Origin: a virus
Direction: 5' to 3' (one strand)
IMG/VR virus record: IMGVR_UViG_3300021139_000007
Coordinates: 5,290 to 69,289 of that record
Length of the DNA stretch: 64,000 bases
A program made the translations under genes and the position numbers. Every line of letters starts with the position of its first letter. Position 1 is the first letter of the stretch. The notes under the pieces were generated by a model. The model was not told the origin of the DNA. It did not search any database and was given only the letters and a program-made list of their open reading frames with translations. Below are positions 5,813 through 60,290 of this stretch, in pieces.

Positions 5813-5822
5813 ACTAAAAAAT

Positions 5823-6664: not shown

Positions 6665-6703
6665 TGGCAATATAAGTATCAAATTAAGAAATATAAATTA
6701 ACG

Positions 6704-6835: not shown

Positions 6836-6893
6836 AAAAATACTAATAATAGATTTTATAAATTAAAATAGTTGAATATTTGAAAATAATTCC

Positions 6894-7021: not shown

Positions 7022-7034
7022 TATACTACTACAC

Positions 7035-8978: not shown

Positions 8979-9033
8979 CGAAAAAAATTTAGTACCAATA
9001 AATAATACTATTTTTACAAAAGAAATTGGTTAA

Positions 9034-10264: not shown

Positions 10265-10266
10265 TT

Positions 10267-32683: not shown

Positions 32684-32690
32684 AAAATAG

Positions 32691-33194: not shown

Positions 33195-33197
33195 ACT

Positions 33198-33998: not shown

Positions 33999-34021
33999 AA
34001 TAATTTGAATAAATAGTAATA

Positions 34022-35680: not shown

Positions 35681-35685
35681 TAAAT

Positions 35686-38600: not shown

Positions 38601-41600
38601 AGGAAATTTCCATTACATGGTTGATGCAACTGATAATCCTGTTTTCATAAGCGATAAGACATTGAAAACACTTACTGATAATGGTGAATTATCAGATTGG
38701 ATGAAAAGAAATGTAGTAAAAGATGTAGTAAAAAGTGATGACAAGCAATTTTCAACTAAATTCAAAGAACAATTAGCTGCAAAAGAAGCAGAACAAAAAG
38801 CATCACAACAAGAGAAAAAGACTACTACAACAGAAAAGCCAACAGAAGAACAAATACTAAAAGACATAAATGAAGGTAATTTAGTTACGTTTACATATAA
38901 GTCAAAAGATGAAGTACCTGATGTTTTTAAGGATAAAATATCAAGCGAAGGTAATGTCAATGGTGAGCAAGTAGTAAGGGTAACAGTACCTAAATCTTTA
39001 GCTGACTATGAATTATCTAAAGGCACTAAAGATGGGACTATCCCAACAGAAAAGAAAACAGACAAGTATATAACTAAACCCGAAGATAACTTAGAAGGTA
39101 AGAAAATATATTCTGATTTTGATGGAACTATTATTGATAACGAAACAGGCAAATTACTGCCATTTGGTGAAGAAGTAAAGCAAAGGATAGCTAATGGCGA
39201 AGATGTGACGATTTTGACCCACAGCAAAGACGAAGAAGGAGAAGCAAAAGGTAGCAATCTTCAACGTATAGCTACTGCATTAGAAATCCCAATAGAAAAA
39301 GCAAAAGAAATAGTAAAGGAAGATGTAAGCCCAACTGAAAAGATAGGATTAGCAAAAGATGGTGTTTTAATTGACAATAGTACAAGTGTATTAAACCAAG
39401 CAAAAGAAGCAGGTATAGAACATCACGATGCAGACAAATTTAATGGTAGAAAAAAAGAAGCGACAGAAGTAGCACAACCCGAAGGAGAAAAGGTAGTACC
39501 TAGTGAAACAGAAGTAGAAAAGACTACCCCAATAAAAGCAAAAAGTAAACTATCTAAATTTAAAGAAAAATTTGTTGATGCTAAAGTAGAAGAACCTAAA
39601 GTAGAAGAAAAAGTAGTTGATGAAAGAAAATCTAAGCAATTAGAATTAATAAATAAGACTAATCCTGCACCAAATGATTATAATACTTGGGTTAGGTCAG
39701 TAGATGATATAAAAACAGCAAAGGAAGTTTGGGATAATGTACCAGAAGGTGATGAAATGTACCCTGATTTTAAAAAAGATGCAATGAATAATGCACTTGA
39801 GAGTGGTGAAATTGAAGTCTATTCAAGCTATCCAATAGAAGATGGTACTTTTATTACCCCATCAAAGGATGGTGCAGAAGATTATGCAGGTGGGAAAGGT
39901 AAACAGATATACTATAAAAAAGTAAAATTAGAAGATGTTGCTTGGCTAGATGAAAGTCAAGGGCAATTCGCACCAATAAAAACAGAAACAACCAAAACAG
40001 AAAAAGTAGAACCTACTACTACCAAAACGGAAACAACTACTACTGCATTAAAAGATGTCGAGAGTGAAATAACAGAAAAGGAATATAAAAAAGAATATCA
40101 ATCTTTAATTGATAAGAAAAAGTTATTAGATGAAAAAAGGGCTGAACTATTAAGAAGAAAGAAAAATATAACTCCAAGTGAATTTAAAACTATTTCTGAT
40201 GAAATAGCAAAAGAAAGTGAAAGTTACGTTAATCAAATGAAAGAGCTTTCTTCTAAAAAAATAATTAAAAGCAACCAACCGCAAATTGAAAAAGTAGAAC
40301 CTACTGTATCTAAGGAAGAAACACCTAAAGAAGAACCATTAAAAGAAACATACGATACAGGAAATAAACTTACTGATACTAAAGATTTAAAAGTAGGTGA
40401 TTATGCAGCTATTAAACACCCTAATGGAGTTACTTATGAAGGTAAAGTAACAAGCGTAGGTAGTAAGAATATTAAAATAGAAACAGAAAGTAAACAATAC
40501 GGTAAACAAGAAATACAATTACCTAAAAATGATGTTATTGGTTTCTTTAAGCCTAAATTTCAAATAGAAACCCCCGAAACAGAACCTATATCAGAAATGA
40601 GAGATATAGTAAAGGACTATGTAGATGAAGGTATAACTAGCTTAGAAAAAATAAAAGACTTAGTTGCAGAAGAATTAGGTACAGATAAATATGCTGATAC
40701 AGTAGAAAAGGCTTTTAATGAGTACACTAAAAAAGAAACAAGAAAAGATATTTCAGAAGCAGTAATAGAAAGAGTAGGTGTTGCTTTAAATAAAATGTTT
40801 AAAGGTGGTACAGTAGAAACTTTAGGTACAAAAGAAATTAAGGCAAAGGCAAAAGAATTATCAAAAGGGAAACCAATTAAATATCAACTTGAAGATGGTA
40901 CTAAGATTGAAGGTAATACTATGCCCGAAATAGTAAATGGGTTTTATTCCCCACTTGAAAAAACTATTAGTGAAACTAAATTCGATAAACTCCCTGCAAA
41001 ACAATGGATAGAAAAATTTGCTAAAGGAGAAGAAGCAAAATGGACAGGATTAACAGATTGGTTAGGTAAACAAGAAGGGAGTGTATCTAAAGCAGATATT
41101 CAAAAATATCTTAAAGATAATAGAATAGAAGTAGTAGAGGTTGATAATAGCACAAAAGGGTCTAATAGATTTGTTTTATTAGATAATGAAGGATATAGTG
41201 TACATGGTGAATCTGTTGAAGTAAATGGTAGTCCTAATAATTTTTTTGCAGACTATAATGATAATGAGATAAATGATTTTGTTTTTAAAGATGGGAGATA
41301 TGTAAGCGAAAGTACTGGATTTGAATTAGAGCCATCAGATGACAATAACGATGGGTTGAAATATGGAGAAATCCAATTAGGTGGTAAATCAGATAATTAC
41401 AAAGAAATACTTATAACTTTACCTAAAACTTATGAAAATTATAAAAAATTAACGACAGAAGGAAAACAATTCAATTCAACTCACTTTGAAGAACCAAATA
41501 TAATCGCACACCTAAGAATGAATACTAGAACCGATGCAGAAGGTAATAAGGTATTATTCTTAGAGGAGTTGCAAAGTGATTGGGGTCAACAAGGTAAAAA

Positions 41601-44600
41601 AGAAGGGTTTAAAGAAATACCTAATGCCCCTTTTGTTACTGATACTAACAATTGGACAAAACTAGCACTAAAAACGGCTTTAAAAGAAGCAATAAAGCAA
41701 GGTTCTGATAAAATTTCTTGGACAACAGGTGAGCAACAAAATGAAAGATACGATTTATCTAAAAAAGTAGATGAATTAAACTATTATAAAACAGAAAGTG
41801 GTAATTATCATATAACAGGAGATAAAGGAGGAGTATCTGTTTCAAGTGGTATTTATAAAGAAAATGAATTAGAGGGGATATTAGGTAAAGAAGTTGCTAA
41901 AAAAATAATAAACAACGAAGGTGAAAACAAATCTAAGTATAATTCTGTTTTCGGTTATAATGATTATGGAGGTAATCAAGAATATAAATCGTTAACAGGT
42001 TCTGATTTGCAAGTAGGTGGTAAAGGTATGAAAGGGTTTTATGGTTCTCCAAAAGAAGGGAGTTTAGGTATAGTAGGTAATGTAGCTAAATCATTATTTA
42101 AACAAGAACCTAAGACGATAGAAATTAACAAATCAGATGTAGATGTTTCTAAAAGTAAGTTATATGATTTTATTGATAAGATGAACTCAAAATATAATTT
42201 ACCTGAAAATGGTAGATTTAAGGTTTTAATTGAAAAAAATGGTACAGAACAAGAGATAGAAACTTACAAAAATTTGAGGAAAGAGTACCAAGATTCAAGT
42301 GAAAGACAAGTTGAATTAGGTAAACCTACAATCCAACACTCAATAGACATAACCCCCGAATTAAAAAAACAAGTACAAGAACAAGGGCAGCCTTTATTTA
42401 TGAAAGATGCCGAAGGTAAGATATTAGGATTCACACATGATGGTAAAATTTATCTAAACAAAGATGAAATAAACCCTAATACCCCTATCCACGAAGCAGG
42501 ACATATATGGGTAGAACACGCAAAAATAAACAGACCCGACATATACGAAAAAGGTATTGAACTTGTAAGCAAGGAAGGTAACCCATATTTAAAAGAAGTA
42601 AAAGAAAATGACTTTTATAAAAAAGAATCAGACAAACTAAAAACACAAGCAGAAAGAGATGAATACTTTCAACATGAAGCACTAGCAGCAGCAATAGGGG
42701 ATAAAGGCGCACAATTCGTTACCGAAGCTAAAAAAGCATCTTTTAAAGATTGGTTAAATAACTTATGGGAATCAGTTAAAAAAGCAGTAGGGTTTGAAGG
42801 TATTTCAGCAAAAGACTTACAGAATTTATCTTTTGAAGACTTTGCAAAAAGAGCAGCAAAAGAAATTTTAGACGATACTACCAATTTTGGTAAGGAAACA
42901 AAAACAAAGACAGATGAAGAAAAAAGTAAAGAAGCCGATGCCAAAACCGAAGGCAAAGGGAATGTAACTGAAAAAGAGGTGACAGTGGGGGGTATTGAAA
43001 CTCCCCCACCACCGATTACGCCAATTTTAGGTTTTGAAAACGTAGGTGGTGAAAGTGAAAAATATACTCAAATAAATAAAGCAACTCAATTACAAGAGGT
43101 TGCTGATTTAAAAGCAAGGTATGATGCACAAGGGGTAAAGGGATGGAGTGAAAGTTTACAGAATGGTCTAAATAGAGTAAAGTCAGAACATCCACATTTA
43201 GACCTTTATGAAGGTGCAAAGAAAGAGTTATATAAGCACCTATCAGACATAGGTAATGGCAGGGTTAGAATGGATGATGAAGACTTAGCTGTAATGTCAT
43301 ATCTAAAGAGAGAAACAGAACTAAGGATGGCAGCCGTTTCTGATTTAAGATTTAATGAAAATGAGTTAGTTTCTATTGCGGCAGAAAAAGATTACAATAT
43401 TTTAAAAGACCAATTTGAGAATACTGTTTTAGCTATAAAAGAAGGTGGAACTACATTAGGTCGTTCATTGGTTTTCTTACAATCAATGTTAGGTTATAAT
43501 TCAGATACGGGATTAATTCTAAAAAGAGGTGAATTAAGAAAGGCGGCAGGTAGAGATTTGACTGAATCTGAATTAGAATATACTGCGAAAGATTGGGTAG
43601 AAGAAAGGGCTAGTCTAATAAAATCACAAGAAATAGAATTAGAAAAGACCAAGAAAGAATTTGAGAACAAGCTACAAAAAGAAATTTCTGAATTAAAGGC
43701 AGAAAAAGATAAAGAATCTAAGAAACAAGTTGTTAATGGAGGGAAAGTAAGCATATCTAAGCCAATTAGAGAAAAGGCTGCATCGGCATTAGAAGCTATT
43801 GCTAAAACATTAGATGAAAAGTTATCTGCTAAATTCCCCGAAGATTCTGATATTAAAAAATCAGGGGTTTCTTTTCAAAAATCTTTTTCAGATAGTATAA
43901 AAGAAATAGCTAAAGACCTTCGTAATAGTGATTTATCAGTAGCAGATATTATTTCTAAGGTAGTAAGAAAATTTGGTGGTGAAGAAAAAGAAAAGTTAAG
44001 TTCAGATATTAAGGATGAATTAAAGAAGTCAGGGATAGAACCTGATTTAGTAGATGAAAAACCGACAATAGAAAAGGCTTTTGATGCAATAAAAGATTTT
44101 TCTACAAATCATGGTGTTAATGATATAACAAATGATATGGTAGGTAAAAAACTCATTGACAATTATATTAAAGCACATATTGATTTATTTGATGCAAAAG
44201 ACATTTTGCCTAACGCATTGAATGAGTTAAAATCAGTATTGCCTAATATTGATGAAAATAAATTGAGGAGGGCTTATTTAAAGAAAGATGAATTTGCTAT
44301 TAAGACTGAATCTAAAATGAAGTCTGAAAAATCAAAAAAAATAATAGAATTAAATAATATAACTAAACTAGAAAACGACTTGAATGACATTAAGCAATTA
44401 AAAGCTATAAAGTCAACACAATTCGCATCCGATAGAGAACGTAGTGATTATGAGAAAGGATTAATAGCAGAGAAGGATGCGTTACTTAAAGAAAAGAAAG
44501 ATAAAGCTGCACAAGCTAAAAAAGAGTATCGTGAACTTGAAACAGAACGTAATAGGCAAATAAGAAAAGTAGAAGAGTTAAAAGAAAAGAAATATAAATT

Positions 44601-47316
44601 AGAACAAGGATTAAGAGAAAAGAAAAATATTTCTCCTAAAATTGATACCCCAGAAATAGAATCGTTAAAAAAGCAAGTAGAAAAGGCAGACAAAGATTTG
44701 CGTGAGCAAGAAAATGCGACTAAAAAAGCAATAAGAGACGTTGAAAATAAAGCTAAAAAAATAGCACAATACGACAAAGACATTAAAGATATTTCAGAAA
44801 GAGGAGAATATCTAAAAAGAAACATTGGGAAAAAAGTTCAGCAGATAGATAAAGACATTCAAAAGAAGCAAAAAGAGGTAGAAGATGCTTTAGCTGCTAA
44901 AGGATTAAAAATTAGCAGAGATGATAAAAGCACAAAATCTTCTTATGAAAGTAGAGCTTCTATTCATAACAGTAGAGTAGATTCGGTTGTTAATGATTTC
45001 CAAAATAAAATAGATGCCCTACAAAACAGTACTGATAAGGAATCTTTGAAGTATAAATCTATGCTTGAAAGAGTAAAAGAAAAATTATTGAAGTCGAAAA
45101 TAGATTACAATACGGATGATAAGTTAGACCAAAGCAAAAAATTTGAAACAGCAGAAAAAGCAATGAAGTCTGCCTATGATGCTATTGATGACATAACTAA
45201 GTATGAAGATAAGTTAGCTATTAGAAAAATAATAGATTCTTATTCTAAGGATAAAGAAAAAGATGAACTAGCTATTAAATTAGAAAAGACAAAGAGAAAG
45301 TATCGTTCTGACATAAAAGAACTTGATAGAAAAATATCATCAAAAGAATTTGATGAACCTAAAAAAGCAGAACCTTTTACAAAATACGATGCTGAATTGA
45401 TTAGGTTAGATAATGAGAGAAGGTTGAAGCAACAATTATTTCAGCAAGCTAAAATGAAAGCAGAATACAATAATAAAAGCAAGTTAAAAACAGCAGCGGA
45501 AGTCATAAGGGGTCTAAATGTATTAGGATTAATATGTAGATTTGGGACTTTAGGGAAAGTAGCCGTTTCAGCGACATTAAAACCACAGTTAAACTATTTA
45601 ACCAAATATACATTAGGGAGGGCTTTTGACAATTTGCCATTTGAAACAACAAAGGCTATATCTAAAAGGGCTAAATTGGGTGGTGAAAGCAATTCTATTG
45701 AAACATTGAAGAAGTTACAAGAAGTAGTATTTAGGCAATATGGCGAAAGTGGATTAGCTGACATTGCATCAAAATCAAGAGATAAATTCGATTTAGCAGA
45801 AAGCAAGTATTTAGAAGCTAAAAAAGAATTAGATGATATTATTAATAAGTCCTCTAAAGAATATAAAGAAAAAGAGATTCAAGTTAATGAATTAAAAAAG
45901 AAACACGATAAAGCATTAGTAGAAGATTTGGGTAATAATGTTTATGATTTTATTGCAGGTTCATCTATCAAGGAATTTATGGAAGTAATACTCCATAGAG
46001 TAAATAAAATAGAACGTGAATTTGGGCAGATAACACAAGACGAAATGGGGTTGGATGAAAATAAATTATCATTGCAATCAGCAATGTACTTAATTGGGCT
46101 AGTTGGTAGAACTCACTCCGCTTTAAAGAATTTTTCTGCACGTTCTGAATTTGCCGCAGGTTTTATAGCAAGACTAGAAGGTCATATAGAAGCAGGTACT
46201 CCAATAGATGCGAATAAAATACTAGAAATAGCTAATGAAAGTTACTTAGATTGGGAAAGGGGGAAATATTCCGAAAAAAACAAAGTTACGGAAGCATGGA
46301 ACGATATAAATAAAATGATAGCGAAAGATTATCCTGCCGTAGCTTACGCATTACAATTTGATGTAGCTATTACTCGTATTCCTAACAATATGCTAAAAGA
46401 AGTTGTAGTAGAATATACAGCAGGTGCTTTTGTTTCAGCATATAAAATGATAAAAGCCTATAAGAATGCCAAGAATGAAGCATTTGAACTAGGTTATACC
46501 GATAAAAAATCAGAAGAATTTAAAGAAGTATTAAGAGAAAGGCTAAATGAAATCCCCACTAAAGAAGCTGCTACAATAGCTAGATGTTTTAGAAAAGGTG
46601 GATTTGGATTAGGTATGTTTGCTTTGGCAGCAATAGGTGGAGTTTATTTTAATAAAGCTGCTTTCGGTGGTTTCCCGCATTTAGGTCAAAAAGAAGAAGA
46701 CAAGAAAAAAGAAAGGATAGAAAAAATAACAGGGGATAATGATGTAAAAACAGGTCAAATAAGTATAGGAGATTTGACATTGCCAGAGTATGCTTCTAAG
46801 TTAATAGAACATACACCTGCTTTTTACCCTGCTTTATTGGCATTGGATATGCACGAAGTGTATAGAGATAAAATAAGAAGTGGGGAAATGAAACCAACCG
46901 CAGCTAAAGATGCAATAGTTTCAAATGTAGAACATTTATTAGAGAGTTCACCACAGATACAATTAGGTATGACTATATTAGCCCCATTAAAAGAAAGGTA
47001 TCTACCTGCTAATTACAAAATAGATGATACAGATGAACATGGAGAGCCAATGAAAAGAGTAATTCTTGAACCTAAAGATTATATAAAGGTGTTAAGTAAC
47101 AAAAAGGATATACTTAGTGATTTTTGGTTCAAAAAAGCATCTTCTATTATAAGTAATAGTAAGAAAGAAAAAGCATCAATAGAAATCAATAAAAAACTTT
47201 CTGATGAACAAAAATCAGAAAAGAAAAAAGAAATAGACGTTCATGCAGATAAAATGATAGATAAAATATACGAAATGAACAAAAAGAACCCTAGTGGTAA
47301 AATGGGTGATAATTAA
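35686..47316 (+). CDS. giant polyvalent internal virion protein (HAD-like, ART-like, SH3-like and zincin metallopeptidase domains, coiled coils)
   Basis: 3876 aa; YSDFDGT; EVYSSY..FITPS..VAWLD; FYSPL..HF.EPN..LEELQSDW; PIHEAGH..HEALA; glycine-rich hydrophobic segments. Confidence 0.75.
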   Translation: MPQQLDEYGIPIRGSEQSQQKESFDEYGIPIKKKASTTQSTSLDGTKPSSNGGTQTPQLASQSKSTLGGESKDVDYKPSTSFSDRFPIAKDKLGQNITTNGISKESTVMTTPASEIEKQSKLEEKSLNKQKVTDAFATAQKRVNTFYGVLSGKLPYTDITKTDFISGSKDPSKIHDITDRAYEGNLTLEDLNTMNIANKAMLAEPQKTVDALNSMAKNIRKITQLATTETSMPSLIQLNGIEQNIERLQNERSRLELESQTKQGNYPKMLADIDAQIKPLREKEAFIKHSQQAIYNTKYETEYKPNILKNIGDLDEFAEIYIDPKTNQIDVLGQERLRSITEQTMKKGGSDFTSLVHEMGTGILDSKNNVSQTGDINVQFNETSNKLISDLNTMLPIKMATKKYKSDYSNKYPELSGYLDSYDKTHNAINSKEKDAAKEFAKTSVHADVLALQDKFDNQLHQNPKAKEIYSKWDGQVKSGMVTQEIAQKNIERDLENDKDISVLLKGRKEQVDAINRKYAGAYQDYITSVLKSNNPNINIYPDGTIGIKGKSKEESNKIVGDYYKGLNDISNKTLQDIGKKKGENAEEIANRHGLFYTGLHQSTLNILNGTFQGMFNAVGIGGDYSKSLQSEMSVNDISPSKTIQELSKQKGVTAWLNPDYLSYQAGLNTPLMLGAAATGFATGGLGLIPSTIAGATFMTGVNLANRVSELSNTKDDFGNNIPTGEAVHIANVEAQTQFATNLSMMLLHSKLATGDAIAKQTIGKSLATFGKEQIPNALMMGAQGYLGEKAMAKAKGEDYNKNFAEYMLSDEGLAGLSSMTPFLIMDAAKVMNSHIGGIKTWKEFLKSTDESFLKNQQYNQSLRQLHTGNIESWIDAQQIRLFNGDYSNEAEKNELQNSLNYSKSIYKNLKAANLSNTNVNGLYAAHNLALGDIHTEYAKQKGEENNTTLQKYHEDEAKKYREEAFKTLSGEGNFHYMVDATDNPVFISDKTLKTLTDNGELSDWMKRNVVKDVVKSDDKQFSTKFKEQLAAKEAEQKASQQEKKTTTTEKPTEEQILKDINEGNLVTFTYKSKDEVPDVFKDKISSEGNVNGEQVVRVTVPKSLADYELSKGTKDGTIPTEKKTDKYITKPEDNLEGKKIYSDFDGTIIDNETGKLLPFGEEVKQRIANGEDVTILTHSKDEEGEAKGSNLQRIATALEIPIEKAKEIVKEDVSPTEKIGLAKDGVLIDNSTSVLNQAKEAGIEHHDADKFNGRKKEATEVAQPEGEKVVPSETEVEKTTPIKAKSKLSKFKEKFVDAKVEEPKVEEKVVDERKSKQLELINKTNPAPNDYNTWVRSVDDIKTAKEVWDNVPEGDEMYPDFKKDAMNNALESGEIEVYSSYPIEDGTFITPSKDGAEDYAGGKGKQIYYKKVKLEDVAWLDESQGQFAPIKTETTKTEKVEPTTTKTETTTTALKDVESEITEKEYKKEYQSLIDKKKLLDEKRAELLRRKKNITPSEFKTISDEIAKESESYVNQMKELSSKKIIKSNQPQIEKVEPTVSKEETPKEEPLKETYDTGNKLTDTKDLKVGDYAAIKHPNGVTYEGKVTSVGSKNIKIETESKQYGKQEIQLPKNDVIGFFKPKFQIETPETEPISEMRDIVKDYVDEGITSLEKIKDLVAEELGTDKYADTVEKAFNEYTKKETRKDISEAVIERVGVALNKMFKGGTVETLGTKEIKAKAKELSKGKPIKYQLEDGTKIEGNTMPEIVNGFYSPLEKTISETKFDKLPAKQWIEKFAKGEEAKWTGLTDWLGKQEGSVSKADIQKYLKDNRIEVVEVDNSTKGSNRFVLLDNEGYSVHGESVEVNGSPNNFFADYNDNEINDFVFKDGRYVSESTGFELEPSDDNNDGLKYGEIQLGGKSDNYKEILITLPKTYENYKKLTTEGKQFNSTHFEEPNIIAHLRMNTRTDAEGNKVLFLEELQSDWGQQGKKEGFKEIPNAPFVTDTNNWTKLALKTALKEAIKQGSDKISWTTGEQQNERYDLSKKVDELNYYKTESGNYHITGDKGGVSVSSGIYKENELEGILGKEVAKKIINNEGENKSKYNSVFGYNDYGGNQEYKSLTGSDLQVGGKGMKGFYGSPKEGSLGIVGNVAKSLFKQEPKTIEINKSDVDVSKSKLYDFIDKMNSKYNLPENGRFKVLIEKNGTEQEIETYKNLRKEYQDSSERQVELGKPTIQHSIDITPELKKQVQEQGQPLFMKDAEGKILGFTHDGKIYLNKDEINPNTPIHEAGHIWVEHAKINRPDIYEKGIELVSKEGNPYLKEVKENDFYKKESDKLKTQAERDEYFQHEALAAAIGDKGAQFVTEAKKASFKDWLNNLWESVKKAVGFEGISAKDLQNLSFEDFAKRAAKEILDDTTNFGKETKTKTDEEKSKEADAKTEGKGNVTEKEVTVGGIETPPPPITPILGFENVGGESEKYTQINKATQLQEVADLKARYDAQGVKGWSESLQNGLNRVKSEHPHLDLYEGAKKELYKHLSDIGNGRVRMDDEDLAVMSYLKRETELRMAAVSDLRFNENELVSIAAEKDYNILKDQFENTVLAIKEGGTTLGRSLVFLQSMLGYNSDTGLILKRGELRKAAGRDLTESELEYTAKDWVEERASLIKSQEIELEKTKKEFENKLQKEISELKAEKDKESKKQVVNGGKVSISKPIREKAASALEAIAKTLDEKLSAKFPEDSDIKKSGVSFQKSFSDSIKEIAKDLRNSDLSVADIISKVVRKFGGEEKEKLSSDIKDELKKSGIEPDLVDEKPTIEKAFDAIKDFSTNHGVNDITNDMVGKKLIDNYIKAHIDLFDAKDILPNALNELKSVLPNIDENKLRRAYLKKDEFAIKTESKMKSEKSKKIIELNNITKLENDLNDIKQLKAIKSTQFASDRERSDYEKGLIAEKDALLKEKKDKAAQAKKEYRELETERNRQIRKVEELKEKKYKLEQGLREKKNISPKIDTPEIESLKKQVEKADKDLREQENATKKAIRDVENKAKKIAQYDKDIKDISERGEYLKRNIGKKVQQIDKDIQKKQKEVEDALAAKGLKISRDDKSTKSSYESRASIHNSRVDSVVNDFQNKIDALQNSTDKESLKYKSMLERVKEKLLKSKIDYNTDDKLDQSKKFETAEKAMKSAYDAIDDITKYEDKLAIRKIIDSYSKDKEKDELAIKLEKTKRKYRSDIKELDRKISSKEFDEPKKAEPFTKYDAELIRLDNERRLKQQLFQQAKMKAEYNNKSKLKTAAEVIRGLNVLGLICRFGTLGKVAVSATLKPQLNYLTKYTLGRAFDNLPFETTKAISKRAKLGGESNSIETLKKLQEVVFRQYGESGLADIASKSRDKFDLAESKYLEAKKELDDIINKSSKEYKEKEIQVNELKKKHDKALVEDLGNNVYDFIAGSSIKEFMEVILHRVNKIEREFGQITQDEMGLDENKLSLQSAMYLIGLVGRTHSALKNFSARSEFAAGFIARLEGHIEAGTPIDANKILEIANESYLDWERGKYSEKNKVTEAWNDINKMIAKDYPAVAYALQFDVAITRIPNNMLKEVVVEYTAGAFVSAYKMIKAYKNAKNEAFELGYTDKKSEEFKEVLRERLNEIPTKEAATIARCFRKGGFGLGMFALAAIGGVYFNKAAFGGFPHLGQKEEDKKKERIEKITGDNDVKTGQISIGDLTLPEYASKLIEHTPAFYPALLALDMHEVYRDKIRSGEMKPTAAKDAIVSNVEHLLESSPQIQLGMTILAPLKERYLPANYKIDDTDEHGEPMKRVILEPKDYIKVLSNKKDILSDFWFKKASSIISNSKKEKASIEINKKLSDEQKSEKKKEIDVHADKMIDKIYEMNKKNPSGKMGDN

Positions 47317-49021: not shown

Positions 49022-49561
49022 ATGAATAAAGTTATTTGGAAATCAGTTTTAGGATTTGAAGGTATATATGAAGTGTCTAATATGGGGCAAGTTAGATTGA
49101 TTATAGATAGAAGTAAAAAGAAAAAATATGACATACTGAAAAGTACCGTAAATACTCATAATTACTACAGGATAAATCTATATAAAAAAGGTGTAAGGTA
49201 CAGCAAGCTAATACATAGATTGGTAGCAGAATCTTTCCTAATAAACGAATTTAACAAAAGAACGGTAAATCACAAAGATGGCAATCCTTCCAACAATGAA
49301 TTAAGCAATTTAGAATGGGCAACAGATTCCGAAAACGTAAAACACTCTTTTGACTTTTTAAATAGAAGACCTACTTGTTTAGGTGTACATGGTAAAGAAC
49401 ACCCTCGTTCTAAAAAAGTAGTATGTGTTACTCTTGGTAAATCATTCGACAATGCTAGAGAAGCTGCAATACAAACAAATAGTTGTTATAAAAAAATATC
49501 ACAAGTTTGCAACGGACAAAGGAACACTACAAACAATTTAATATTCAGATTTGATATATAA
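49022..49561 (+). CDS. NUMOD4-HNH-NUMOD1 homing endonuclease
   Basis: WKSVLGFEGIYEVSNMG, HRLVAESF, VNHKDGNPSNNELSNLEW. Confidence 0.9.
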   Translation: MNKVIWKSVLGFEGIYEVSNMGQVRLIIDRSKKKKYDILKSTVNTHNYYRINLYKKGVRYSKLIHRLVAESFLINEFNKRTVNHKDGNPSNNELSNLEWATDSENVKHSFDFLNRRPTCLGVHGKEHPRSKKVVCVTLGKSFDNAREAAIQTNSCYKKISQVCNGQRNTTNNLIFRFDI

Positions 49562-50552: not shown

Positions 50553-51086
50553 ATGCCTTGTTCAGTAGAACTTAATGATACATCTAAGATACCCATACTT
50601 ACAGGGTGTCCTTCCGATAACGAATACTTTTTGGTTATCGGTGCTGCTAATGGTGCAGGTCAAGGTGGTTATGGTGTTAGAAGTTGGTTAGCATTACAAC
50701 AATGTTTAGCAAGTGCAATTTCTTTCCCTGAAATAGATACAATAGTAGGTCAAGGCAATCCTGTAATTTTGCCAACAGGATGTACTTCTTATACAATAAA
50801 TGCAAAGGTTCTACCAAAATCAGTAAAGTGTTTTGTAGATGGTCAAAGAATATTTCCCGTTGTATCAGACCAATTGTACATAGATATTCAATATTCTACT
50901 ACCTTTGTCACGATTTCATTCTTTAATTACTCAATAGATGATGAAACAGTAAATCTAGGGCTACAATATGGACAAAAAGTAATTATTGAATTTGCAGTAT
51001 CAGGAAGTACACCATTAGGGATAAATTTAACAACAGAAGATGGTTTTGACATAACAACAGAGGACGGACAAAACATAACAATTTAA
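50553..51086 (+). CDS. putative tail-fibre adaptor
   Basis: C-terminal LTTEDGFDITTEDGQNITI repeat of the kind I recall preceding fibre genes; no signal peptide. Confidence 0.5.
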   Translation: MPCSVELNDTSKIPILTGCPSDNEYFLVIGAANGAGQGGYGVRSWLALQQCLASAISFPEIDTIVGQGNPVILPTGCTSYTINAKVLPKSVKCFVDGQRIFPVVSDQLYIDIQYSTTFVTISFFNYSIDDETVNLGLQYGQKVIIEFAVSGSTPLGINLTTEDGFDITTEDGQNITI

Positions 51087-51094
51087 AATAAATT

Positions 51095-52504
51095 ATGAAG
51101 AAGATATTTTTAGCGTTTTTAATTCTAATTTCTGGTAGGGGTATTTCCCAAGTATCAATTTCCCAACTACCAACTTATACAGGAAGCCCTGTAGGGACAT
51201 TTGTACCCTTAGTACAAGGTGGTTCTACTAAAAAAATAGACGGTTCTAAATTAGGACAAGTTTCTGATTCAACTAAAATACCATACTTAGCAAAGAATAA
51301 TAACTTTACAGGTAATGATACTTTCCCTTCAATAGTTTGGGCTTCTAATGGTAGCGATACTTTAGCTACTCAAAGTTATGTAAGAAGTGTAGGTGGAGGA
51401 GGTGGAGGTTCTAATATTGATACTACTAGAATACCATTCCTTGCTAAAAACAACACTTTTACAGGGGATAATAGTTTTACAACATTAGAACTTAATTCTC
51501 TTACAGCAAGTTCAGTTATTAACTTAGGAGGATATGGGATTAATTCATTTTCTAATGATACATCTTTGTCTAGTTCACCACAATACAGTTTGCCAACTCA
51601 AAATGCAGTAACAGGGTATGTAGGGAATCATGCTCAATTAAAATCAAACCTATCTAATGATGGGACAATGGCAGCTAACTCAACAACTCTTTATCCAACT
51701 CAACAAGCTACTAGGACTTATGCAGCAGGATTAGTAGTAGGGTTATTAAATGATAGAGGTAGTTATAATGCAAGTAGTAATGTATATCCATCAACAGGGG
51801 GGAGTGGTACAGCAGGGGCAATTCTAAAAGGTGACATTTGGTATATTAATACAGCGGGAACTTTAGGTGGCACATCTGTTTCAGTAGGTGCAAGTGTGAG
51901 GGCTTTAGCCAATAGCCCTGCACAAACATCATCAAATTGGGATATTCTTAATGTAGGATTAGGGTATGTTCCTGAAAATGTGGCAAATAAATCTACTAGC
52001 GTTTCTAGTGATAGTGGGAGTACTACAAAATATCCGACAACACAATCGGTTGCAAGATATTCACAATCACTTAGTAATTTAGCTACTACTATTACGCCTT
52101 CTGATTCAAGTAGTAATACTCTTTATCCTTCTGTAAATGCAGTAAAAAGATATGTAGATTCAAATAGTGGTGTATTACCTTATAAAGTGTATAATGCGAT
52201 TATTAGTGTTGATGGTAGCGGTGTTACAGTTAATTCATCTTATAATACATTTAATGGCATTACTTTTAATTGGTATTTAGTAGGTAACGGGAGAATTGAG
52301 TTAACTTCAAGTTCATCTATTTTCACCACAAATAAGACATACTATTTTGGTCAAAGTTTAAATAATGGGGGTGTAATGTATTTAACTAGCCCTGAATTAA
52401 ATTTTAATAATCGTATATTTATAGATATTATAAAAGCTATTGATAATAGCCAAACATCTACACCAAGTGTAACATTCCCAATAGAAATCAGAGTTTACCC
52501 ATAA
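51095..52504 (+). CDS. tail-fibre-like protein with Sec signal peptide
   Basis: MKKIFLAFLILISGRGIS|Q; SISQLP; 2x IPxLAKNNxFTG; 4x PT/Sxx(A/S)(V/T)xxY repeats; ENVANK. Confidence 0.7.
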   Translation: MKKIFLAFLILISGRGISQVSISQLPTYTGSPVGTFVPLVQGGSTKKIDGSKLGQVSDSTKIPYLAKNNNFTGNDTFPSIVWASNGSDTLATQSYVRSVGGGGGGSNIDTTRIPFLAKNNTFTGDNSFTTLELNSLTASSVINLGGYGINSFSNDTSLSSSPQYSLPTQNAVTGYVGNHAQLKSNLSNDGTMAANSTTLYPTQQATRTYAAGLVVGLLNDRGSYNASSNVYPSTGGSGTAGAILKGDIWYINTAGTLGGTSVSVGASVRALANSPAQTSSNWDILNVGLGYVPENVANKSTSVSSDSGSTTKYPTTQSVARYSQSLSNLATTITPSDSSSNTLYPSVNAVKRYVDSNSGVLPYKVYNAIISVDGSGVTVNSSYNTFNGITFNWYLVGNGRIELTSSSSIFTTNKTYYFGQSLNNGGVMYLTSPELNFNNRIFIDIIKAIDNSQTSTPSVTFPIEIRVYP

Positions 52505-52523
52505 TAAATATACAAACAAGCAA

Positions 52524-53738
52524 ATGAAGATACTATTAACTATATTATTAAGTTTACTTTTGATAGTGGGGTTTTCTCAACAAATCCCTAATGGTAATCC
52601 TATCACTAATGCCCCTAACTCATGGGTATCTTATGGTTATACTAGAGATAGTGGTAAGATATTTATAGTAAGAGATACCTTTAATGCACGTTATCCAACA
52701 GTAGTAATGAGACCTGATGGGATTCTTTGGAAAACATTAGGTAATGGTGCTTATTGGTACATGGTAGGTAGTTCAGCAATAGATACACTTCACTCTTTAG
52801 TTACTCATACAGCTTTAAATGACAGCCTTTTAAGATATTTAAAAGATACGGTATTTTGTCATTATGATACTGTTTTTTGGGAAAGGGGCGGTAGTACTTA
52901 TTACATAAGAGTAGATACCTTTTCTTCTAATCCAACATTATATGGGGCTAACTTTGGTAAGTATGTTGCAGGTAATACCCCGAATTGGAAGGGACTTTCT
53001 TCAAGAGAAGCAATTATAGATGCCATAACACAATGTAACCATCCAAATTATATTTCACCAACTGTAACCATCAATAGTAGTACTTCATTTGGTAGTTATG
53101 AATATGGAACAAATTTAGGTTCTATAACACTAAGTAATACATTTGTGCCTAATAATGGGGGTAGTGATACTGCTAATGTTTATTATCAAAACAGTAGTGC
53201 TTTAGGAGGTAATACCACCACTATATCATCATTGACATCAACTCAATATTTTTATGTAAATTCAGCATATCAACAAGGGGCTTGTATAGCTAACAATTGT
53301 GGCACAATAGATTGTTACGGAAGAATAAATGCAGGGAATGTAAATAGTGGGACGAGTTCTTATTCTGTAGGTTATAGGCGTTATTATGGGTGGATAAGCG
53401 ATACTACGGGGATAACTACAGGAGGACAAGATGCGGCAATAAGGGCTGTTATAGATAGTACGCAATTTAGTGTATCTGCTTCTTTTGGAAGCTCGTTATC
53501 ACCTATTAATACGGGGAATCCTCCTAGTGGGTCTGCTTATTATATTTTTGGGTATGTAAGTACAAGCCCAACAATGAGTGATATTGTAATAAATGGTACT
53601 CCATTAGGCATTAATGCCTTCAATGTAAATACTAGGTCAACATTTACTAATTCACAAGGAGTTACATTGCCTATAAGAGTGTATTACAATAAAAACAAAC
53701 AATACGGTTCTTTTTCAGTTTATACAACATCTAATTAA
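52524..53738 (+). CDS. fibre/appendage-like protein with Sec signal peptide
   Basis: MKILLTILLSLLLIVGFS|Q; S/T/N/G/Y-rich beta structure. Confidence 0.6.
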   Translation: MKILLTILLSLLLIVGFSQQIPNGNPITNAPNSWVSYGYTRDSGKIFIVRDTFNARYPTVVMRPDGILWKTLGNGAYWYMVGSSAIDTLHSLVTHTALNDSLLRYLKDTVFCHYDTVFWERGGSTYYIRVDTFSSNPTLYGANFGKYVAGNTPNWKGLSSREAIIDAITQCNHPNYISPTVTINSSTSFGSYEYGTNLGSITLSNTFVPNNGGSDTANVYYQNSSALGGNTTTISSLTSTQYFYVNSAYQQGACIANNCGTIDCYGRINAGNVNSGTSSYSVGYRRYYGWISDTTGITTGGQDAAIRAVIDSTQFSVSASFGSSLSPINTGNPPSGSAYYIFGYVSTSPTMSDIVINGTPLGINAFNVNTRSTFTNSQGVTLPIRVYYNKNKQYGSFSVYTTSN

Positions 53739-55667
53739 ATGAAGAAACTAATATTTATATTATCATTATTTTTATCATTATTTGCTAAAGGACAAGTAGT
53801 GTATAATGGATTAGGTGGATATGTTCCTAATGGTAACTACGCAGGTTATTATGCCCCTTATATGCAAGGTGCAACAAAAATAGCTTACGACACAACAGCA
53901 AGAAACGCCATCCCGTCTTATTATAGGGATACGTTAACTTTCATGTGTTATACAGTAGTAGATAGCTCTTTTTGGATATTGAGAGGAGGTATAGCTAATT
54001 CCAATTACAGCAAAATATCTACTTTCAGCAAAAGTTTTATTCCTTATAATGCAATATTACAAAATGGGAATAAATTTGGCGCAACAGAAATAATAGGAAC
54101 TAACGACTATTATAACGTTCAAATTAATAGAGGTGGGACACAGGCATTACTGATTGATACATTTGGATTGACCAATACAGCAGGTAACTTTAGGATAAAT
54201 ACGGGGTCGGGCAATGCTACCTTTTACGATTTCGGTGCTAGTCACACAATGCAGTTACCTAGTGATACCCCTTCAATTGCACCACCAATATTATACACAA
54301 ACTTATTAGCTTATAAAAATGGGACTTTATATGTGAAAGACACGGCTACATCTCACTCATGGAATTATGGCAGGTTAGCTTATTACAGAGATTTAACGGG
54401 TTACGGGAACACCTACTCCCAAGGCGTAACACCATCAAGTTCAAAAGTGTCAATCCCATTCTATAATGGCACGCATTCAATAAGTTATACTAATAACGCT
54501 GTAATGGATAGTGTCACGGGGGCTATATATGTCAATAATAAGAGGTTGGCGGATACAACAGATTTGGCTACAAGGTTAAAATATACTGATACAAGTGGGA
54601 TGTTATTGGCTTATGGTACGGCTATTAATGGAAAACAAGCTACTTTGGTTTCAGGTACAAATATAAAAACCGTTAATGGAACAAGTGTTTTGGGTAGTGG
54701 CGATATTGCCGTTAGTGGAGGGCTTACAGGTGCAGGAACGGTATCGAGTACAGTAGTGCCATTGACAGTATGGAGTGCAACTAACAGCAAGGTAAGTAGT
54801 ACAGGAACATACGCAAGTTGGGATACTGTAAACCATAGACTAGGAATAAATAATACATCCCCTTCCTATAATTTAGATGTCACAGGAGATACTAGAATAT
54901 TATCTACTAGCGGAAGTAATCAAGTTTTATTTCATGCGGGAGTAAGTGCAGCACCGTATATCAATTTATCCTATTCGGGGGTAGTTAATTTATTTTTAGC
55001 GGGAATCGGTAACGGTACAAATGCAGGATTAGGGTTATATAACAGTAGTAATCTTACTCAATATTGCTCATTAAGTGCAGCGGATATATTAGGGAACAGT
55101 GGAATATTACAAATACAAGGCAATAGTTCAGATGCGTATGGTTCGTTTGGGTCGAGTAACGGGAAATCATCATATGTACGATTTACAGAATCGGGGGTGG
55201 GGTATAGAGGTTTAATAGGTTTTGCTGGCGGGTCGGGTAATCTTCAATTTAGGTTAGGGGCTAGCAATATGACTAGCGGCACTCAAACAATGACACTAGC
55301 ATCTTCAACAGGTGCATTGTTATTAGGAACGGCTACTGATGACGCAGTTAATCTATTGCAAATTAATGGAAGTGCAAAAGCAACTTCATTTAATTCAAAC
55401 GCAACACAAACAACGGTAAGCGCATCAACAAGTGGAACGGTAATATTTAGTGAGCCTTTTGCAGGGAGTAGCTATAAAAAAGTTGTTATCTATTGTAATG
55501 GTGCAACAGGGACTGCTAGTTATACTTTCCCTACTGCATTAACTTATACGCCTACAGTAGTTTCGACAAGCGGACTTGCAACAAGTTTAGTTACTTCAAT
55601 AAGTACAACGGCGGTGACTGTTACGGGCGCAGCTTCAACAGGATTTTTAATTTTAGAAGGATATTAA
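53739..55667 (+). CDS. tail fibre protein with Sec signal peptide
   Basis: [18 protein letters not shown]|Q; [25 protein letters not shown] and [16 protein letters not shown] fibre motifs. Confidence 0.75.
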
Positions 55668-55669
55668 TT

Positions 55670-56050
55670 ATGAAAAAGTTATTTATTAGTTTGCTACTTA
55701 TCGCAAGTTTAGGGGTTAAAGCCCAATATGTGCCAACAATAGACACATCATTTCACCCTGTTATTGATACTACCTTGCAAGGCATTACAGCGTGTCATAT
55801 TTCGCCTATAAAGTCAGCGTTTAGCAATGATTCAGCTACTTTAATTTCAGTAGTTAGTGTAAGCGACAATTTAGAGAGTTTGGCGAATTTGAATTTTAGT
55901 TTTTTAAATGCGAATCAATCTGTAATAAAATCATTCACGTTTACTATTCAAGGTCAAAACTATGTGGATTGGAATAGTAACGTGTATTTATTCAAATTGT
56001 TTGCAACGTATCTAAATAATCAATACGGAGTAAAATTAACATTCAAATAA
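55670..56050 (+). CDS. small secreted protein, possible fibre assembly chaperone
   Basis: MKKLFISLLLIASLGVKA|Q; directly follows the fibre gene. Confidence 0.55.
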   Translation: MKKLFISLLLIASLGVKAQYVPTIDTSFHPVIDTTLQGITACHISPIKSAFSNDSATLISVVSVSDNLESLANLNFSFLNANQSVIKSFTFTIQGQNYVDWNSNVYLFKLFATYLNNQYGVKLTFK

Positions 56051-56063: not shown

Positions 56064-56300
56064 ATGACATGGCAGGAAATGGCAGCAATTAGTACGGTAG
56101 GAGTTGCAGGGGTAACTATTATAGGCTTTATTTTGGCGAATCACTCGAACATTCAAGTAAGACTTAAAGCTCTTGAAATTGAAGTTACGGGGTTAAAAGA
56201 AGCGCAAGAAAAGACTGATAGTAAGTTTGATAGGATAATGGATAAGCTCGAAAGTATATCAATAGCACTTAGTAATAAAGTGGACAAACATAACGGATAA
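56064..56300 (+). CDS. holin/antiholin-like membrane protein
   Basis: one N-terminal TM segment plus coiled coil. Confidence 0.5.
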   Translation: MTWQEMAAISTVGVAGVTIIGFILANHSNIQVRLKALEIEVTGLKEAQEKTDSKFDRIMDKLESISIALSNKVDKHNG

Positions 56301-56345
56301 AAACAAGGGCGAAAGTAGAAACCTTCGCCCGTAATTATTAAGATT

Positions 56346-56663
56346 ATGATGTGGCAAATATATATCATAATAGTTAAAGTGGCTTACATTATATTTGCGA
56401 TGTGGTTAGGGTTTCAAATTATAAATAATAAATTTATGCAAAGCAAAATTTTCACAGTAGGAGTTACCGATTTTTTACATGGCTTATTTATTGCCATTGT
56501 AGGTGCAGTCTTAACAGTTGTAAGCACTTCATTGAGTGCAGGGTCATTGACTTTTGATTACAAGGCGATTGGCACAACGGCAGCAATTGCAGGATTAAGC
56601 TATGTTAGTAAGAAGTTCCTAAGTAACAATCAAGGGGCTATTTTAACGCCTGATTCAAAGTAA
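56346..56663 (+). CDS. putative holin (alternative start MQSKIF at 56436)
   Basis: DFLHGLFIAIVGAVL..FDYKAIG..AGLSYVSKKFL, 2-3 TM segments. Confidence 0.65.
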   Translation: MMWQIYIIIVKVAYIIFAMWLGFQIINNKFMQSKIFTVGVTDFLHGLFIAIVGAVLTVVSTSLSAGSLTFDYKAIGTTAAIAGLSYVSKKFLSNNQGAILTPDSK

Positions 56664-58511: not shown

Positions 58512-59042
58512 ATGACAAGGAACAGTTACCCCGAAAAGCCTGTAGTTGCGTTTGTTTCAGCAGCTATTGACAAGCAAAAAATAATAGACATACTAAAATT
58601 ATCTGATTGTAGCGCAGAGATTAAACGGTCAGCATTCATAATAATGCGTAACGAAACAGGAAACTTCCACAGCGTAATCAATGGCGTAAATACAAGCGGA
58701 GTACAGGCAGATAGTGGTAGATGGTCACAATTTTGGGATTCTCATATCGTTGCTACTTGCTTGAAAAATGAGGGGATGACAGGAAAAGAAAGGCGTTTTG
58801 TAGTGTTTGATAAGTTGGAAACGGGTATAAACTTTCTTATTAATAGGATTCAAGCGAAAGGATTGTTTATAGGGGAAAAAGTAGATACCGATTACTTTAA
58901 AGGAGATGTTACAACGGTTGAACAATTGGCGGTTGCCTATGCTAAGGAATGGGTTTATGGCAGCGAAACTATTAAGCCTGATTCACAGTTCATTAAGGAT
59001 TTTATAAGTATGTATAATCAATCAAAAATGTTATTCTCATGA
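58512..59042 (+). CDS. putative endolysin (lysozyme-like/GH73 glucosaminidase-like)
   Basis: MRNETG catalytic-Glu helix, NTSGVQ, FVVFDKLETG, YAKEW. Confidence 0.55.
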   Translation: MTRNSYPEKPVVAFVSAAIDKQKIIDILKLSDCSAEIKRSAFIIMRNETGNFHSVINGVNTSGVQADSGRWSQFWDSHIVATCLKNEGMTGKERRFVVFDKLETGINFLINRIQAKGLFIGEKVDTDYFKGDVTTVEQLAVAYAKEWVYGSETIKPDSQFIKDFISMYNQSKMLFS

Positions 59043-59563
59043 GTGAAATATGGTTACCAATTAAAGGTTATGAATGTTTATATGAAATATCTAATTTTGG
59101 TAGAATAAAAATATTACCAAAAAAAGTTAATTGTTTAATTGGGAAAAGTAGAATTAATAAAGAAAGAATATCTTTAGGTAGTTTAGATAAAGAAGGATAT
59201 AGGCAATTTTCTTTAATTAGCAAAGGCATTGAAAAAAAGGTAAAAGTTCATAGATTAGTAGCTTCCCATTTTATTAATAGTGGTAATGATAATTTAGAAG
59301 TAAACCATATAGATTTTAATAGGTCTAATAATAATTATTATAACTTAGAATGGTCTACTAGAAAAGAAAACCAAACACATACAGTTACAAATAATAGAAA
59401 TGTTAAAGGCGTTAAAGTTTGGAGTTCAAGAATAACAATAGATTGTAATACAGGAATATTTTATGACACATTAAAGCAGGCTTGTATTGCTAAATGTATA
59501 TCGTATGTTAATGCTAAAAAAAGTATTTGTAAAGGTATTTATAAAGGGCTTCAATATGCTTAA
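59039..59563 (+). CDS. NUMOD4-HNH homing endonuclease
   Basis: WLPIKGYECLYEISNFGR, VHRLVA, VNHIDFNRSNNNYYNLEW. Confidence 0.9.
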   Translation: MSEIWLPIKGYECLYEISNFGRIKILPKKVNCLIGKSRINKERISLGSLDKEGYRQFSLISKGIEKKVKVHRLVASHFINSGNDNLEVNHIDFNRSNNNYYNLEWSTRKENQTHTVTNNRNVKGVKVWSSRITIDCNTGIFYDTLKQACIAKCISYVNAKKSICKGIYKGLQYA

Positions 59564-59684: not shown

Positions 59685-60290
59685 ATGAAAAAATACTTAC
59701 TTATCATATTGTTGATGTCAACAATATGGTCACAGGCACAAAAGATTGATACTATTATCAAGATGCCTAATTACACATCGTATTATAGTTATCAATTACA
59801 CAACCCTATATTTGTCATTTATAGCCTATTTAAAGGCGGTGGAAGTTGCAGCAGGGATAAGGATAGGTTTATTACGGCAAACCTACCTAATAGTGCTACA
59901 TCTAAGGATTATGAAGGTAATGGTTATGATGAAGGTCATCAAGCACCTGCACAAGACTTTGCCTATGACTGTAAACTCCAGGAACAAACATTCAGATTTT
60001 TTAATTGTGTACCACAAACACCTCGATTAAACAGAGGTATATGGAAGCAATGGGAAACAACAATTCGCAAAGAATCACAACACGACACAATACAAGTAAT
60101 ATGCGGTAATGTTTACGGAACTAAAACAATAGGCAACAAAGTAGCAGTACCTTCTTATTGTTGGAAGATAACCAAAGTTAAAGGTAAAGTTACCCATTGC
60201 CTACTATTCCCTAATGATAACAGCGATAGTTATAGTTGTGTAAGTGCTGATAGTTTGAGGGGGTTGTATAAGGGGATTGCGGTGTTTTAA
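59685..60290 (+). CDS. secreted DNA/RNA non-specific endonuclease (NucA type)
   Basis: signal peptide ..WSQA|Q; GYDEGHQAPA, NCVPQ..LNRGIWKQWE, VAVPSYCWK. Confidence 0.88.
   Translation: MKKYLLIILLMSTIWSQAQKIDTIIKMPNYTSYYSYQLHNPIFVIYSLFKGGGSCSRDKDRFITANLPNSATSKDYEGNGYDEGHQAPAQDFAYDCKLQEQTFRFFNCVPQTPRLNRGIWKQWETTIRKESQHDTIQVICGNVYGTKTIGNKVAVPSYCWKITKVKGKVTHCLLFPNDNSDSYSCVSADSLRGLYKGIAVF

Follow-up and report, generated by a model that had tools for sequence, protein, structure and literature searches.

Tailed phages normally assemble wholly in the cytoplasm of the infected cell. In the short-tailed phage T7, the fibre gp17 docks on the gp11/gp12 tail. Phage proteins that use the Sec pathway include spanins, signal-anchor-release (SAR) endolysins and lipoprotein exclusion factors such as Llp of phage T5, and they are often encoded beside receptor-binding or lysis genes. 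Closest to the case described here are the Cellulophaga phages phi18:3 (KC821620, Pachyviridae) and phi46:3 (KC821622). Proteins gp085-gp087 of phi18:3 are annotated in GenBank as 'structural protein' with the remark 'experimental MS/MS proteomics analysis' (tandem mass spectrometry, MS), and all have a leader directly followed by Gln (..FGYS/QV, ..VSA/QT and ..LNA/QT, the slash marking the predicted cut); the other nine MS-supported proteins of this phage have no such leader. The same pattern is seen in gp079-gp083 of phi46:3, and the leader proteins of these phages bear RefSeq names such as pectate lyase, virion structural protein and tail fiber protein. Leaders of this type have also been described in prophages of Porphyromonas gingivalis, where the genes, of unassigned function, are viewed as an adaptation to Bacteroidota secretion and as possible modifiers of the host outer membrane (excerpts of PMC10367356). 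In Bdellovibrio bacteriovorus, the mosaic adhesive trimer (MAT) fibres are tail-fibre-like trimeric adhesins with a signal peptide and then a conserved N-terminal domain (excerpts of PMC10769870). A search of the open-access literature found no paper on Sec leaders on tailed-phage fibres or on a periplasmic assembly step. Here we describe a stretch of 64,000 nucleotides (positions 5,290 to 69,289 of IMG/VR record IMGVR_UViG_3300021139_000007), referred to as the window, in which four consecutive genes for fibre-like proteins all encode a predicted Sec leader.

The window is part of a 69,289-bp viral genome with a GC content of ~32% and no tRNA genes. The locus in question (50553-56050) consists of five tightly packed open reading frames (ORFs) on the + strand, with intergenic gaps of 0-20 nt. 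Named by their first position, they are, in order, 50553, 51095 (protein A), 52524 (B), 53739 (C) and 55670 (D). The initial annotation of the window had noted that A-D begin with MK(K), a hydrophobic core, a small residue and Gln, and this was confirmed on the + strand for all four. The N-termini read MKKIFLAFLILISGRGIS in A, MKILLTILLSLLLIVGFS in B and MKKLFISLLLIASLGVKA in D, each followed by Q, and the leader of C is likewise 18 residues long with Gln next, the predicted cut falling between residues 18 and 19 in every case. Each has an h-region of 9-15 residues with a mean Kyte-Doolittle hydropathy of 2.7-3.6, and the residues before the predicted cut are G-x-S in A and B, A-x-G in C and V-x-A in D. 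Substrates of signal peptidase I (SPI) in Bacteroidota typically carry Gln at +1 (the Q-rule; excerpts of PMC5837995 and PMC10653852), and the earlier statement that the leaders follow this rule holds, Gln19 being present in all four.

Leaders were called with a crude heuristic of our own (positively charged n-region, uncharged hydrophobic h-region, small residues at -3/-1) combined with reading by eye. When applied to the 79 non-nested ORFs of at least 60 amino acids (aa) in the 69,289-bp genome, it flagged 11 loosely. A strong h-region, a -3/-1 site and Gln at +1 occur together in only five: A, B, C, D and the nuclease 59685. A sixth leader ORF, 57326, is of the lipobox type, and is the sole one to be so; a lipobox was sought in the leaders of A-D and none was found. 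The placement of four of these five ORFs in succession is unlikely to be accidental, given that a run of at least four arises in 5625 of 22,537,515 possible arrangements of five among 79 (2.5e-4, exhaustive count). As the initial annotation had claimed, 50553 and the head and tail proteins are different in this respect: the heuristic flagged neither 50553 nor any ORF of the head, tail and ejection block (19511-47316). On phi18:3 it made errors in both directions, flagging gp120 (Gly/Ala-rich, not leader-like) and missing gp086, the leader of which was recognized by eye. Dual translation starts, which would yield a cytoplasmic isoform, were considered and rejected, as no conserved start codon was found just behind the leaders of A-D. 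Codons 2-32 of 51095 include no ATG, GTG or TTG, so that the leader is an obligatory part of that protein.

In A, the leader is an extra element on an otherwise ordinary fibre protein. A full HMMER scan returned 2631 relatives at E≤1e-3, which have a central domain in common (residues ~180-335). Among the top 150 of this family (query included), a leader is present in only 12, nine of which have Gln at +1, and the leader is therefore a lineage-specific addition. It is placed exactly ahead of the fibre N-terminal domain, which in leaderless relatives begins at residue 2-6. In relative P0157 the leader ends in GKS and is followed by QLTDAQL, and 11 leaderless relatives start with M(S/A)Q(L/R/K)TD at the same alignment column. 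In the window, the leader of A ends in GIS and is followed by QVSISQLP, and the leaderless relative P0089 starts with MSTIKISQLP. This placement is directly observed, and since the N-termini align at the cut, the predicted cleavage would regenerate almost exactly the N-terminus of a leaderless fibre. Among the sequence comparisons made, this alignment is the clearest single result.

A survey of relatives, which had been proposed with the initial annotation, confirmed that the leaders are conserved in other phages. A leader is present in 32 of 35 B relatives by the heuristic and in 34 of 35 by eye. The leader sequences themselves differ widely, with Gln nearly always next, and when 32 B-family sequences are aligned, six columns are invariant, Gln19 among them. 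The seven close C relatives P0002, P0003, P0005, P0006, P0007, P0010 and P0026 all have a leader with Gln, another close relative (P0004) has merely a short leader-like stretch before Gln, and the distant relatives P0008, P0009 and P0047 have no leader. Leaders that are retained while their sequences drift are taken to be under selection. The cassette recurs on three other phage backbones. Loci L001/L002 encode five leader proteins consecutively and L004 encodes four, the order being A-B-C-(x)-D, with structural genes on one side of the run and a lipobox protein and lysis genes on the other. Counterparts of D are encoded last in the cassettes of L001 (118 aa) and L004 (125 aa, 62% identity). 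Orthologues of A with a leader are found in L001, L003 and L004, and that of L003, a Pachyviridae-like locus (its 1174-aa ORF matches phrog_14478, E 7.7e-57), lies within the virion gene module. In L005, the A orthologue (6001-7395) has no leader and starts with MSQLTDDQL, while two proteins encoded downstream of it do bear leaders.

A host-derived or prophage origin of these genes was rejected. For B, none of 11 pattern matches in species-representative genomes was a relative, and for C there was one among 35 pattern matches, on a phage-like contig of a metagenome-assembled genome (MAG) labelled Methylococcaceae. This contig (L012, region 5607-10617, GC 40%) is probably mis-binned phage DNA. 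It encodes two large proteins with a leader and Gln, one of which shares with C the C-terminal domain ending in ..IEGY, and upstream of them a leaderless 382-aa ORF starting with an ILQLP motif. The idea that B and C share an N-terminal domain was also rejected (BLASTP E 0.1 for B vs C, and E 3.5 for B vs P0003).

The fibre motifs that the initial annotation had quoted from the cores are all present, ISQLP lying three residues past the predicted cut in A, and in their sequences the cores of A-D are phage-fibre-like. Pfam, PHROGs and NCBIfam hold no family for any of the four, and no Peptidase_S74 domain was found in them (Pfam). Residues 276-328 of C, within its repeat, match a 'tail fiber protein' of Pseudomonas phage Rollin (54% identity, E 5e-6, 8% of the query). 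A tblastn search of cultured phages gave two short motif matches for C, one weak match for A and none for B, and sequence searches of the PDB with the A profile and with C returned nothing at E≤1. The structure model of B is of good quality, with a predicted local distance difference test (pLDDT) score of 80 that rises above 90 from residue 170. It has 45 fold matches in BFVD at E≤1e-3, including proteins of Tenacibaculum and crAss-like phages, some of them named tail protein or tail fiber, although names of this BFVD/RefSeq type are annotations and not experiments. Compared with solved structures, B is immunoglobulin/fibronectin type III (Ig/FN3)-like, the best matches being Ig-like carbohydrate-associated modules (Z 8.2, root-mean-square deviation 3.1, 87 aligned residues); Foldseek against the PDB gave nothing at E≤1e-3, with only Fab-like Ig entries. 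The Atlas lead for B is viral clusters bearing Mtd_N, at 0.90, and D matches only unnamed viral clusters there. Residues 19-130 of A, modelled as a trimer within the complex described below, reach a pLDDT of 76-79. Domains are shuffled within the B and C families, as is typical of receptor-binding fibres. The small protein D may work alongside the fibres in their compartment, as a partner or as a chaperone.

The leaderless ORF 50553 had been described as adaptor-like, a view that gains support from co-variation and from a complex model. Its body (residues 58-150) is 61% identical to a 265-aa ORF located directly upstream of the cassette in L001/L004, and the tails of the two differ. The family is small (five matches), and none of eight pattern matches in viral contigs was a close relative. 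In the window and in L003, a tail of the form TTEDG..TTEDG..ITI is paired with a fibre N-domain bearing ISxLP, while in L001/L004 and in L005 (where the ORF at 5485-5994 precedes the A orthologue) the tail is DTFDNTFDNTFS or FDETFDYTFN and the N-domain has QLTD(A/D)QL. These pairings are observed directly and, as far as these loci are compared, adaptor tail and fibre N-domain swap together across phages.

The complex of 50553 with A, which had been suggested as a check, was modelled from three copies of A residues 19-130 and one copy of 50553, using our own small alignments and this 3+1 stoichiometry. The interface score ipSAE was 0.66 in 3/3 runs, against 0.01 for the best of three controls. 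The mark set for this score is reached by 58/80 solved complexes vs 2/110 mismatched pairs, a calibration that holds only roughly here because of the small alignments and the 3+1 arrangement. Contacts agreed between runs by at least 89%, and the pLDDT of the partner was at least 73. In the modelled interface, residues 156-177 of 50553 face residues 19-25 and 38-45 of A in all three copies. This supports an arrangement, modelled and not measured, in which the 50553 tail sits inside a trimer of mature A N-termini, so that the leader-bearing A would dock by its first mature residues onto the leaderless 50553. Among A-D, co-variation and the complex model support an N-terminal docking domain for A only.

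O-glycosylation in Bacteroidota takes place on extracytoplasmic proteins at the sequon D-(S/T)-(A/I/L/V/M/T), the occurrence of which was compared with composition-preserving shuffles. Proteins A-D have 18 sequons vs 5.4 expected (Poisson P 1.5e-5), and the remaining 75 ORFs of the genome have 52 vs 51.1 expected. The lipobox protein 57326 has the highest density in the genome (7 vs 1.2 expected), and the nuclease 59685 has 3 vs 0.56. The enrichment extends to relatives: 120 vs 37.4 expected in the leader-bearing B family, and 64 vs 15.5 in leader-bearing C relatives, compared with 286 vs 328.9 in leaderless C relatives. The leader cassettes of L001 and L004 have 21 vs 8.0 and 18 vs 5.0, the L003 fibre has 7 vs 2.7, and the two leader proteins of L005 have 16 vs 5.6. 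Across these four loci the leader proteins are enriched 2.6-3.6-fold, and their leaderless neighbours are at 0.76-0.95 of expectation. The enrichment is a direct count and provides an independent, if indirect, sign of life outside the cytoplasm; attachment of glycans is predicted only. The initial proposal that the proteins are exported thus receives indirect support from the sequons, and from the presence of the same leader type on a nuclease of the Endonuclease_NS family.

Because a host secretion signal is present on four neighbouring fibre-like proteins, the host-recognition parts of this phage probably mature outside the cytoplasm, away from particle assembly. In the pathway that we propose, A-D would be made with a host-type Sec/SPI leader and cut after residue 18, the exposed N-terminal Gln would be cyclised to pyroglutamate, as is normal in Bacteroidota, and the proteins would fold, probably trimerise and become O-glycosylated at the above sequon in the periplasm. 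The capsid, the tail and the leaderless 50553 would be made in the cytoplasm. Docking of fibre A would follow, its mature N-termini surrounding the TTEDG tail at the C-terminus of 50553. This late step would be possible only after the holin-like proteins encoded downstream have breached the inner membrane, or after lysis. The parts of this pathway are not equally secure. Export of A-D by their Sec leaders is very probable, and association of the leader proteins with the virion is likely. For the full chain, from export through periplasmic maturation to docking on the 50553 tail once the membrane opens, the arguments for and against are about evenly balanced. A similarly even judgement applies to the wider explanation we find best, in which the phage is lytic and of a short-tailed type, and the four genes are its fibre/receptor-binding cassette. 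The most general form of the proposal is offered tentatively, and we incline slightly against it: across a wide range of Bacteroidota phages, all parts of the receptor-binding apparatus (fibre A and its companions B, C and D) would be Sec-routed, trimmed to pyroglutamate, O-glycosylated by the host and assembled in the periplasm, and would snap onto fibreless particles via the short C-terminal peptide of a leaderless adaptor between holin triggering and rupture of the outer membrane.

Exported proteins need not join the virion. Their site of action could be the infected cell's envelope, where they might mask or destroy the receptor (for superinfection exclusion, or so that progeny do not stick to debris), serve as adhesins or assist lysis. 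An envelope location is also what the leaders and sequons suggest, the genes adjoin the lysis cassette and the leader-bearing nuclease, and in L005 fibre A is leaderless while proteins encoded nearby bear leaders. The T5 Llp and Cor proteins are exported exclusion proteins encoded beside receptor-binding genes. The Q-rule genes of the P. gingivalis phages are read as possible outer-membrane modifiers (excerpts of PMC10367356). On the other hand, A has a canonical N-terminal docking domain for which the partner tail on 50553 co-varies and passes the complex model, the leader fibre of L003 lies within a virion module, phi18:3 proteins with like leaders are annotated as structural from MS/MS, the domain shuffling within the families is that of receptor-binding fibres, and none of A-D has a lipobox. 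An envelope role for the cassette as a whole is therefore judged unlikely. The initial annotation had itself named superinfection exclusion and adhesion as alternatives; the predicted docking to 50553 weakens them for A and leaves them conceivable for B, C and D.

It is also conceivable that the leader is not used for full export, either because it stays in place, uncut, and tethers the protein to the membrane from the cytoplasmic side, or because saturation or shutdown of Sec late in infection leaves it bypassed, with the fibres joining particles in the cytoplasm. This would agree with the established cytoplasmic assembly of tailed phages, with the leaderless orthologue in L005, where the docking module works in the cytoplasm, and with a docking partner that has no leader. 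A mere tether, however, has no need of the complete SPI design (-3/-1 site and invariant Gln at +1) that is kept across divergent relatives. Sequons are also enriched where there is a leader and not in leaderless neighbours or relatives, and residues 19-25, by which A is predicted to dock, lie right at the cut. We consider such a bypass improbable. Passage beyond the periplasm, to the surface or the medium by type IX secretion or vesicles, with virions acquiring the proteins outside the cell or the proteins acting there, seems very improbable. C and its relatives do share a conserved C-terminal domain of ~90 aa on variable bodies, a layout like that of type IX cargo, but A-D gave no match to type IX C-terminal domain models at E≤0.1 (Pfam, NCBIfam), and the C-termini of A, B and D are unrelated; a novel sorting domain is conceivable.

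Several observations weigh against the proposed pathway. The leader calls come from the heuristic and from inspection, not from SignalP, and 50553 is a putative virion protein. For this phage we infer that the leaders are cleaved and that the proteins are glycosylated and present in the virion, as well as when docking takes place and what B, C and D do. Structure models had been suggested as a check of the fibre identity, and they agree with it for B, which folds like phage tail and fibre proteins, but A modelled as a monomer reaches a pLDDT of just 58, is poor except at residues 220-290, and has a best solved-structure match (Z 3.5) that is too weak to use. The four leader proteins may not be the sole receptor-binding candidates, since a leaderless ORF in the structural block (32691-33194) matches PHROGs named short tail fibre and may be a second one. 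In the L005 locus a leaderless A keeps the tail/N-domain pairing of the L001 type, from which it follows that export is no requirement of the docking module. Not all leader proteins are enriched in sequons. Eight more distant leader-bearing A relatives have 32 sequons vs 30.1 expected, the leader proteins of L012 have 2 vs 4.5, and the leader proteins of the Cellulophaga phages are depleted, with 3 vs 15.6 in phi46:3 (L007, 30343-38945; P 1.3e-4) and 3 vs 9.7 in phi18:3 (L011, 5892-11584), the opposite of the uncultured cassettes. Nor are the family totals independent events, because homologues share inherited sites. The MS precedent of phi18:3 applies by analogy only, as its proteins have no detectable similarity to A-D, and MS of virion preparations can pick up envelope contaminants. 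Finally, a host in the phylum Bacteroidota is what we infer from the Q-rule, the fold matches of B (predicted proteins of Tenacibaculum and crAss-like phages) and a weak similarity of the large terminase subunit (TerL) to Cellulophaga phages, not from a match to a host genome.

The cassette and the other features of the window are listed in Table 1.

Table 1. Coordinates and characteristics of the cassette and other features of the window.
Feature	Position	Strand	Remarks
TerL	12270-14267	+	phrog_6681 (E 6.4e-39)
Leaderless 167-aa ORF in the structural block	32691-33194	+	PHROGs: short tail fiber protein (E 4.2e-22), tail fiber adhesin (E 1.3e-20)
HNH homing-endonuclease-like gene	49022-49561	+	phrog_59 (E 4.2e-38); breaks up the late region immediately upstream of the cassette
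Leaderless adaptor-like protein, 177 aa	50553..51086	+	C-terminal tail (TTEDG..TTEDG repeat, residues 156-177) predicted to dock with the 51095 trimer
Fibre protein A, 469 aa	51095..52504	+	Predicted leader 1-18; ISxLP-type N-terminal docking domain (predicted); widespread central fibre domain ~180-335
Protein B, 404 aa	52524..53738	+	Predicted leader 1-18; low-confidence linker; Ig/FN3-like domain ~176-283; C-terminal beta-sandwich
Protein C, 642 aa	53739..55667	+	Predicted leader 1-18; GTNIKT(V/I)NG fibre repeat; LGINNT motif; conserved ~90-aa C-terminal domain ending ..EGY
Protein D, 126 aa	55670..56050	+	Predicted leader 1-18; small beta-rich protein, last of the cassette
Two small membrane proteins, 78 aa and 105 aa (ORFs 56064 and 56346)	56064..56663	+	Putatively holin-like, by position and hydrophobic segments
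Lipobox (LIGC) protein with C-terminal membrane segment	57326..57835	+	Putatively spanin-like; sequon-rich
ORF beside the lysis genes	59039-59563	+	N-terminal sequence resembles that of the 49022 ORF, by eye
DNA/RNA non-specific nuclease	59685..60290	+	Leader with Gln at +1; Pfam Endonuclease_NS (E 6.6e-29, 101.6 bits); phrog_14168 nuclease

The genome has a long block of + strand structural genes, mostly unrecognisable and including ORFs of 1579 and 3876 aa, and it has a lysis-like region. Most head and tail ORFs have no family match, and only TerL, the nuclease, the HNH endonuclease and the 167-aa ORF at 32691 could be named. TerL is weakly similar (23% over 312 aa, E 2e-7) to the ORF that occupies the corresponding place in Cellulophaga Pachyviridae. 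By eye, the order of the 1579-aa, Gly-rich 266-aa, 552-aa and 3876-aa ORFs (27570-47316, + strand) resembles that of gp114, gp120, gp121 and gp123 in phi18:3. A promoter pattern of the Bacteroidota type occurs 6 times vs 2.5 expected, a count reached by 5 of 100 shuffles. The two small membrane proteins downstream of the cassette (56064 and 56346) have no family match in Pfam or PHROGs; relatives of 56346 are found after the cassettes of L004 and L005, and a relative of the lipobox protein 57326 follows the cassette in L001. The latter protein looks like a single-component spanin; further small ORFs come next, and the nuclease lies beyond them. The nuclease 59685, a leader-bearing phage enzyme encoded beside the lysis region, serves as an internal control for the export signal.

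If the proposed pathway is true, tailed phages would have a two-compartment assembly route, with host glycans on their fibres. Were the fibres exported, completion of the particle would be coupled to lysis, and the fibres could bear host-made glycans and pyroglutamate ends, with consequences for their stability, their antigenicity and their resistance to proteases. A leader on a fibre gene would then mark a Bacteroidota host in metagenomes, and the engineering or heterologous production of Bacteroidota phage fibres would need a periplasmic route. The idea can be tested in cultured Cellulophaga phages, where leader proteins are annotated as virion components. The predicted docking of a 50553 peptide within a 51095 trimer, with modules that swap together, would provide a simple rule for the movement of fibre cassettes between backbones.

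Among the described systems, phi18:3 and phi46:3 resemble the window in having consecutive large proteins with a leader and Gln encoded just upstream of the lysis genes, in Bacteroidota phage genomes of ~70 kb; they differ in that the proteins have no detectable similarity to A-D, and that sequons are depleted there and enriched here. The P. gingivalis prophage genes likewise encode SPI leaders that expose Gln, although the excerpts of PMC10367356 draw no link to fibres or virion assembly. From the signal peptides of the MAT fibres it follows that such fibres can fold after Sec export, but these are bacterial proteins displayed on the predator cell, many with an S74 chaperone-protease (excerpts of PMC10769870), a domain for which A-D gave no Pfam match. 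As with spanins, SAR endolysins and Llp, the export signals of A-D are of the host type and phage-encoded, and the window has a lipobox protein of its own in 57326; those, however, are small proteins that act on the envelope, whereas A-D are fibre-like and have no lipobox. Short-tailed phages of the T7 type dock a trimeric fibre N-domain on a tail adaptor, as is predicted from the model for 51095 and 50553, except that both partners are cytoplasmic there and one bears an export signal here. Relative to all of these, what is new in the window is a leader that maps exactly onto canonical fibre N-termini, a four-gene cassette shared by three backbones, and a putative docking of the fibre on an adaptor tail, to which both co-variation and the complex model point.

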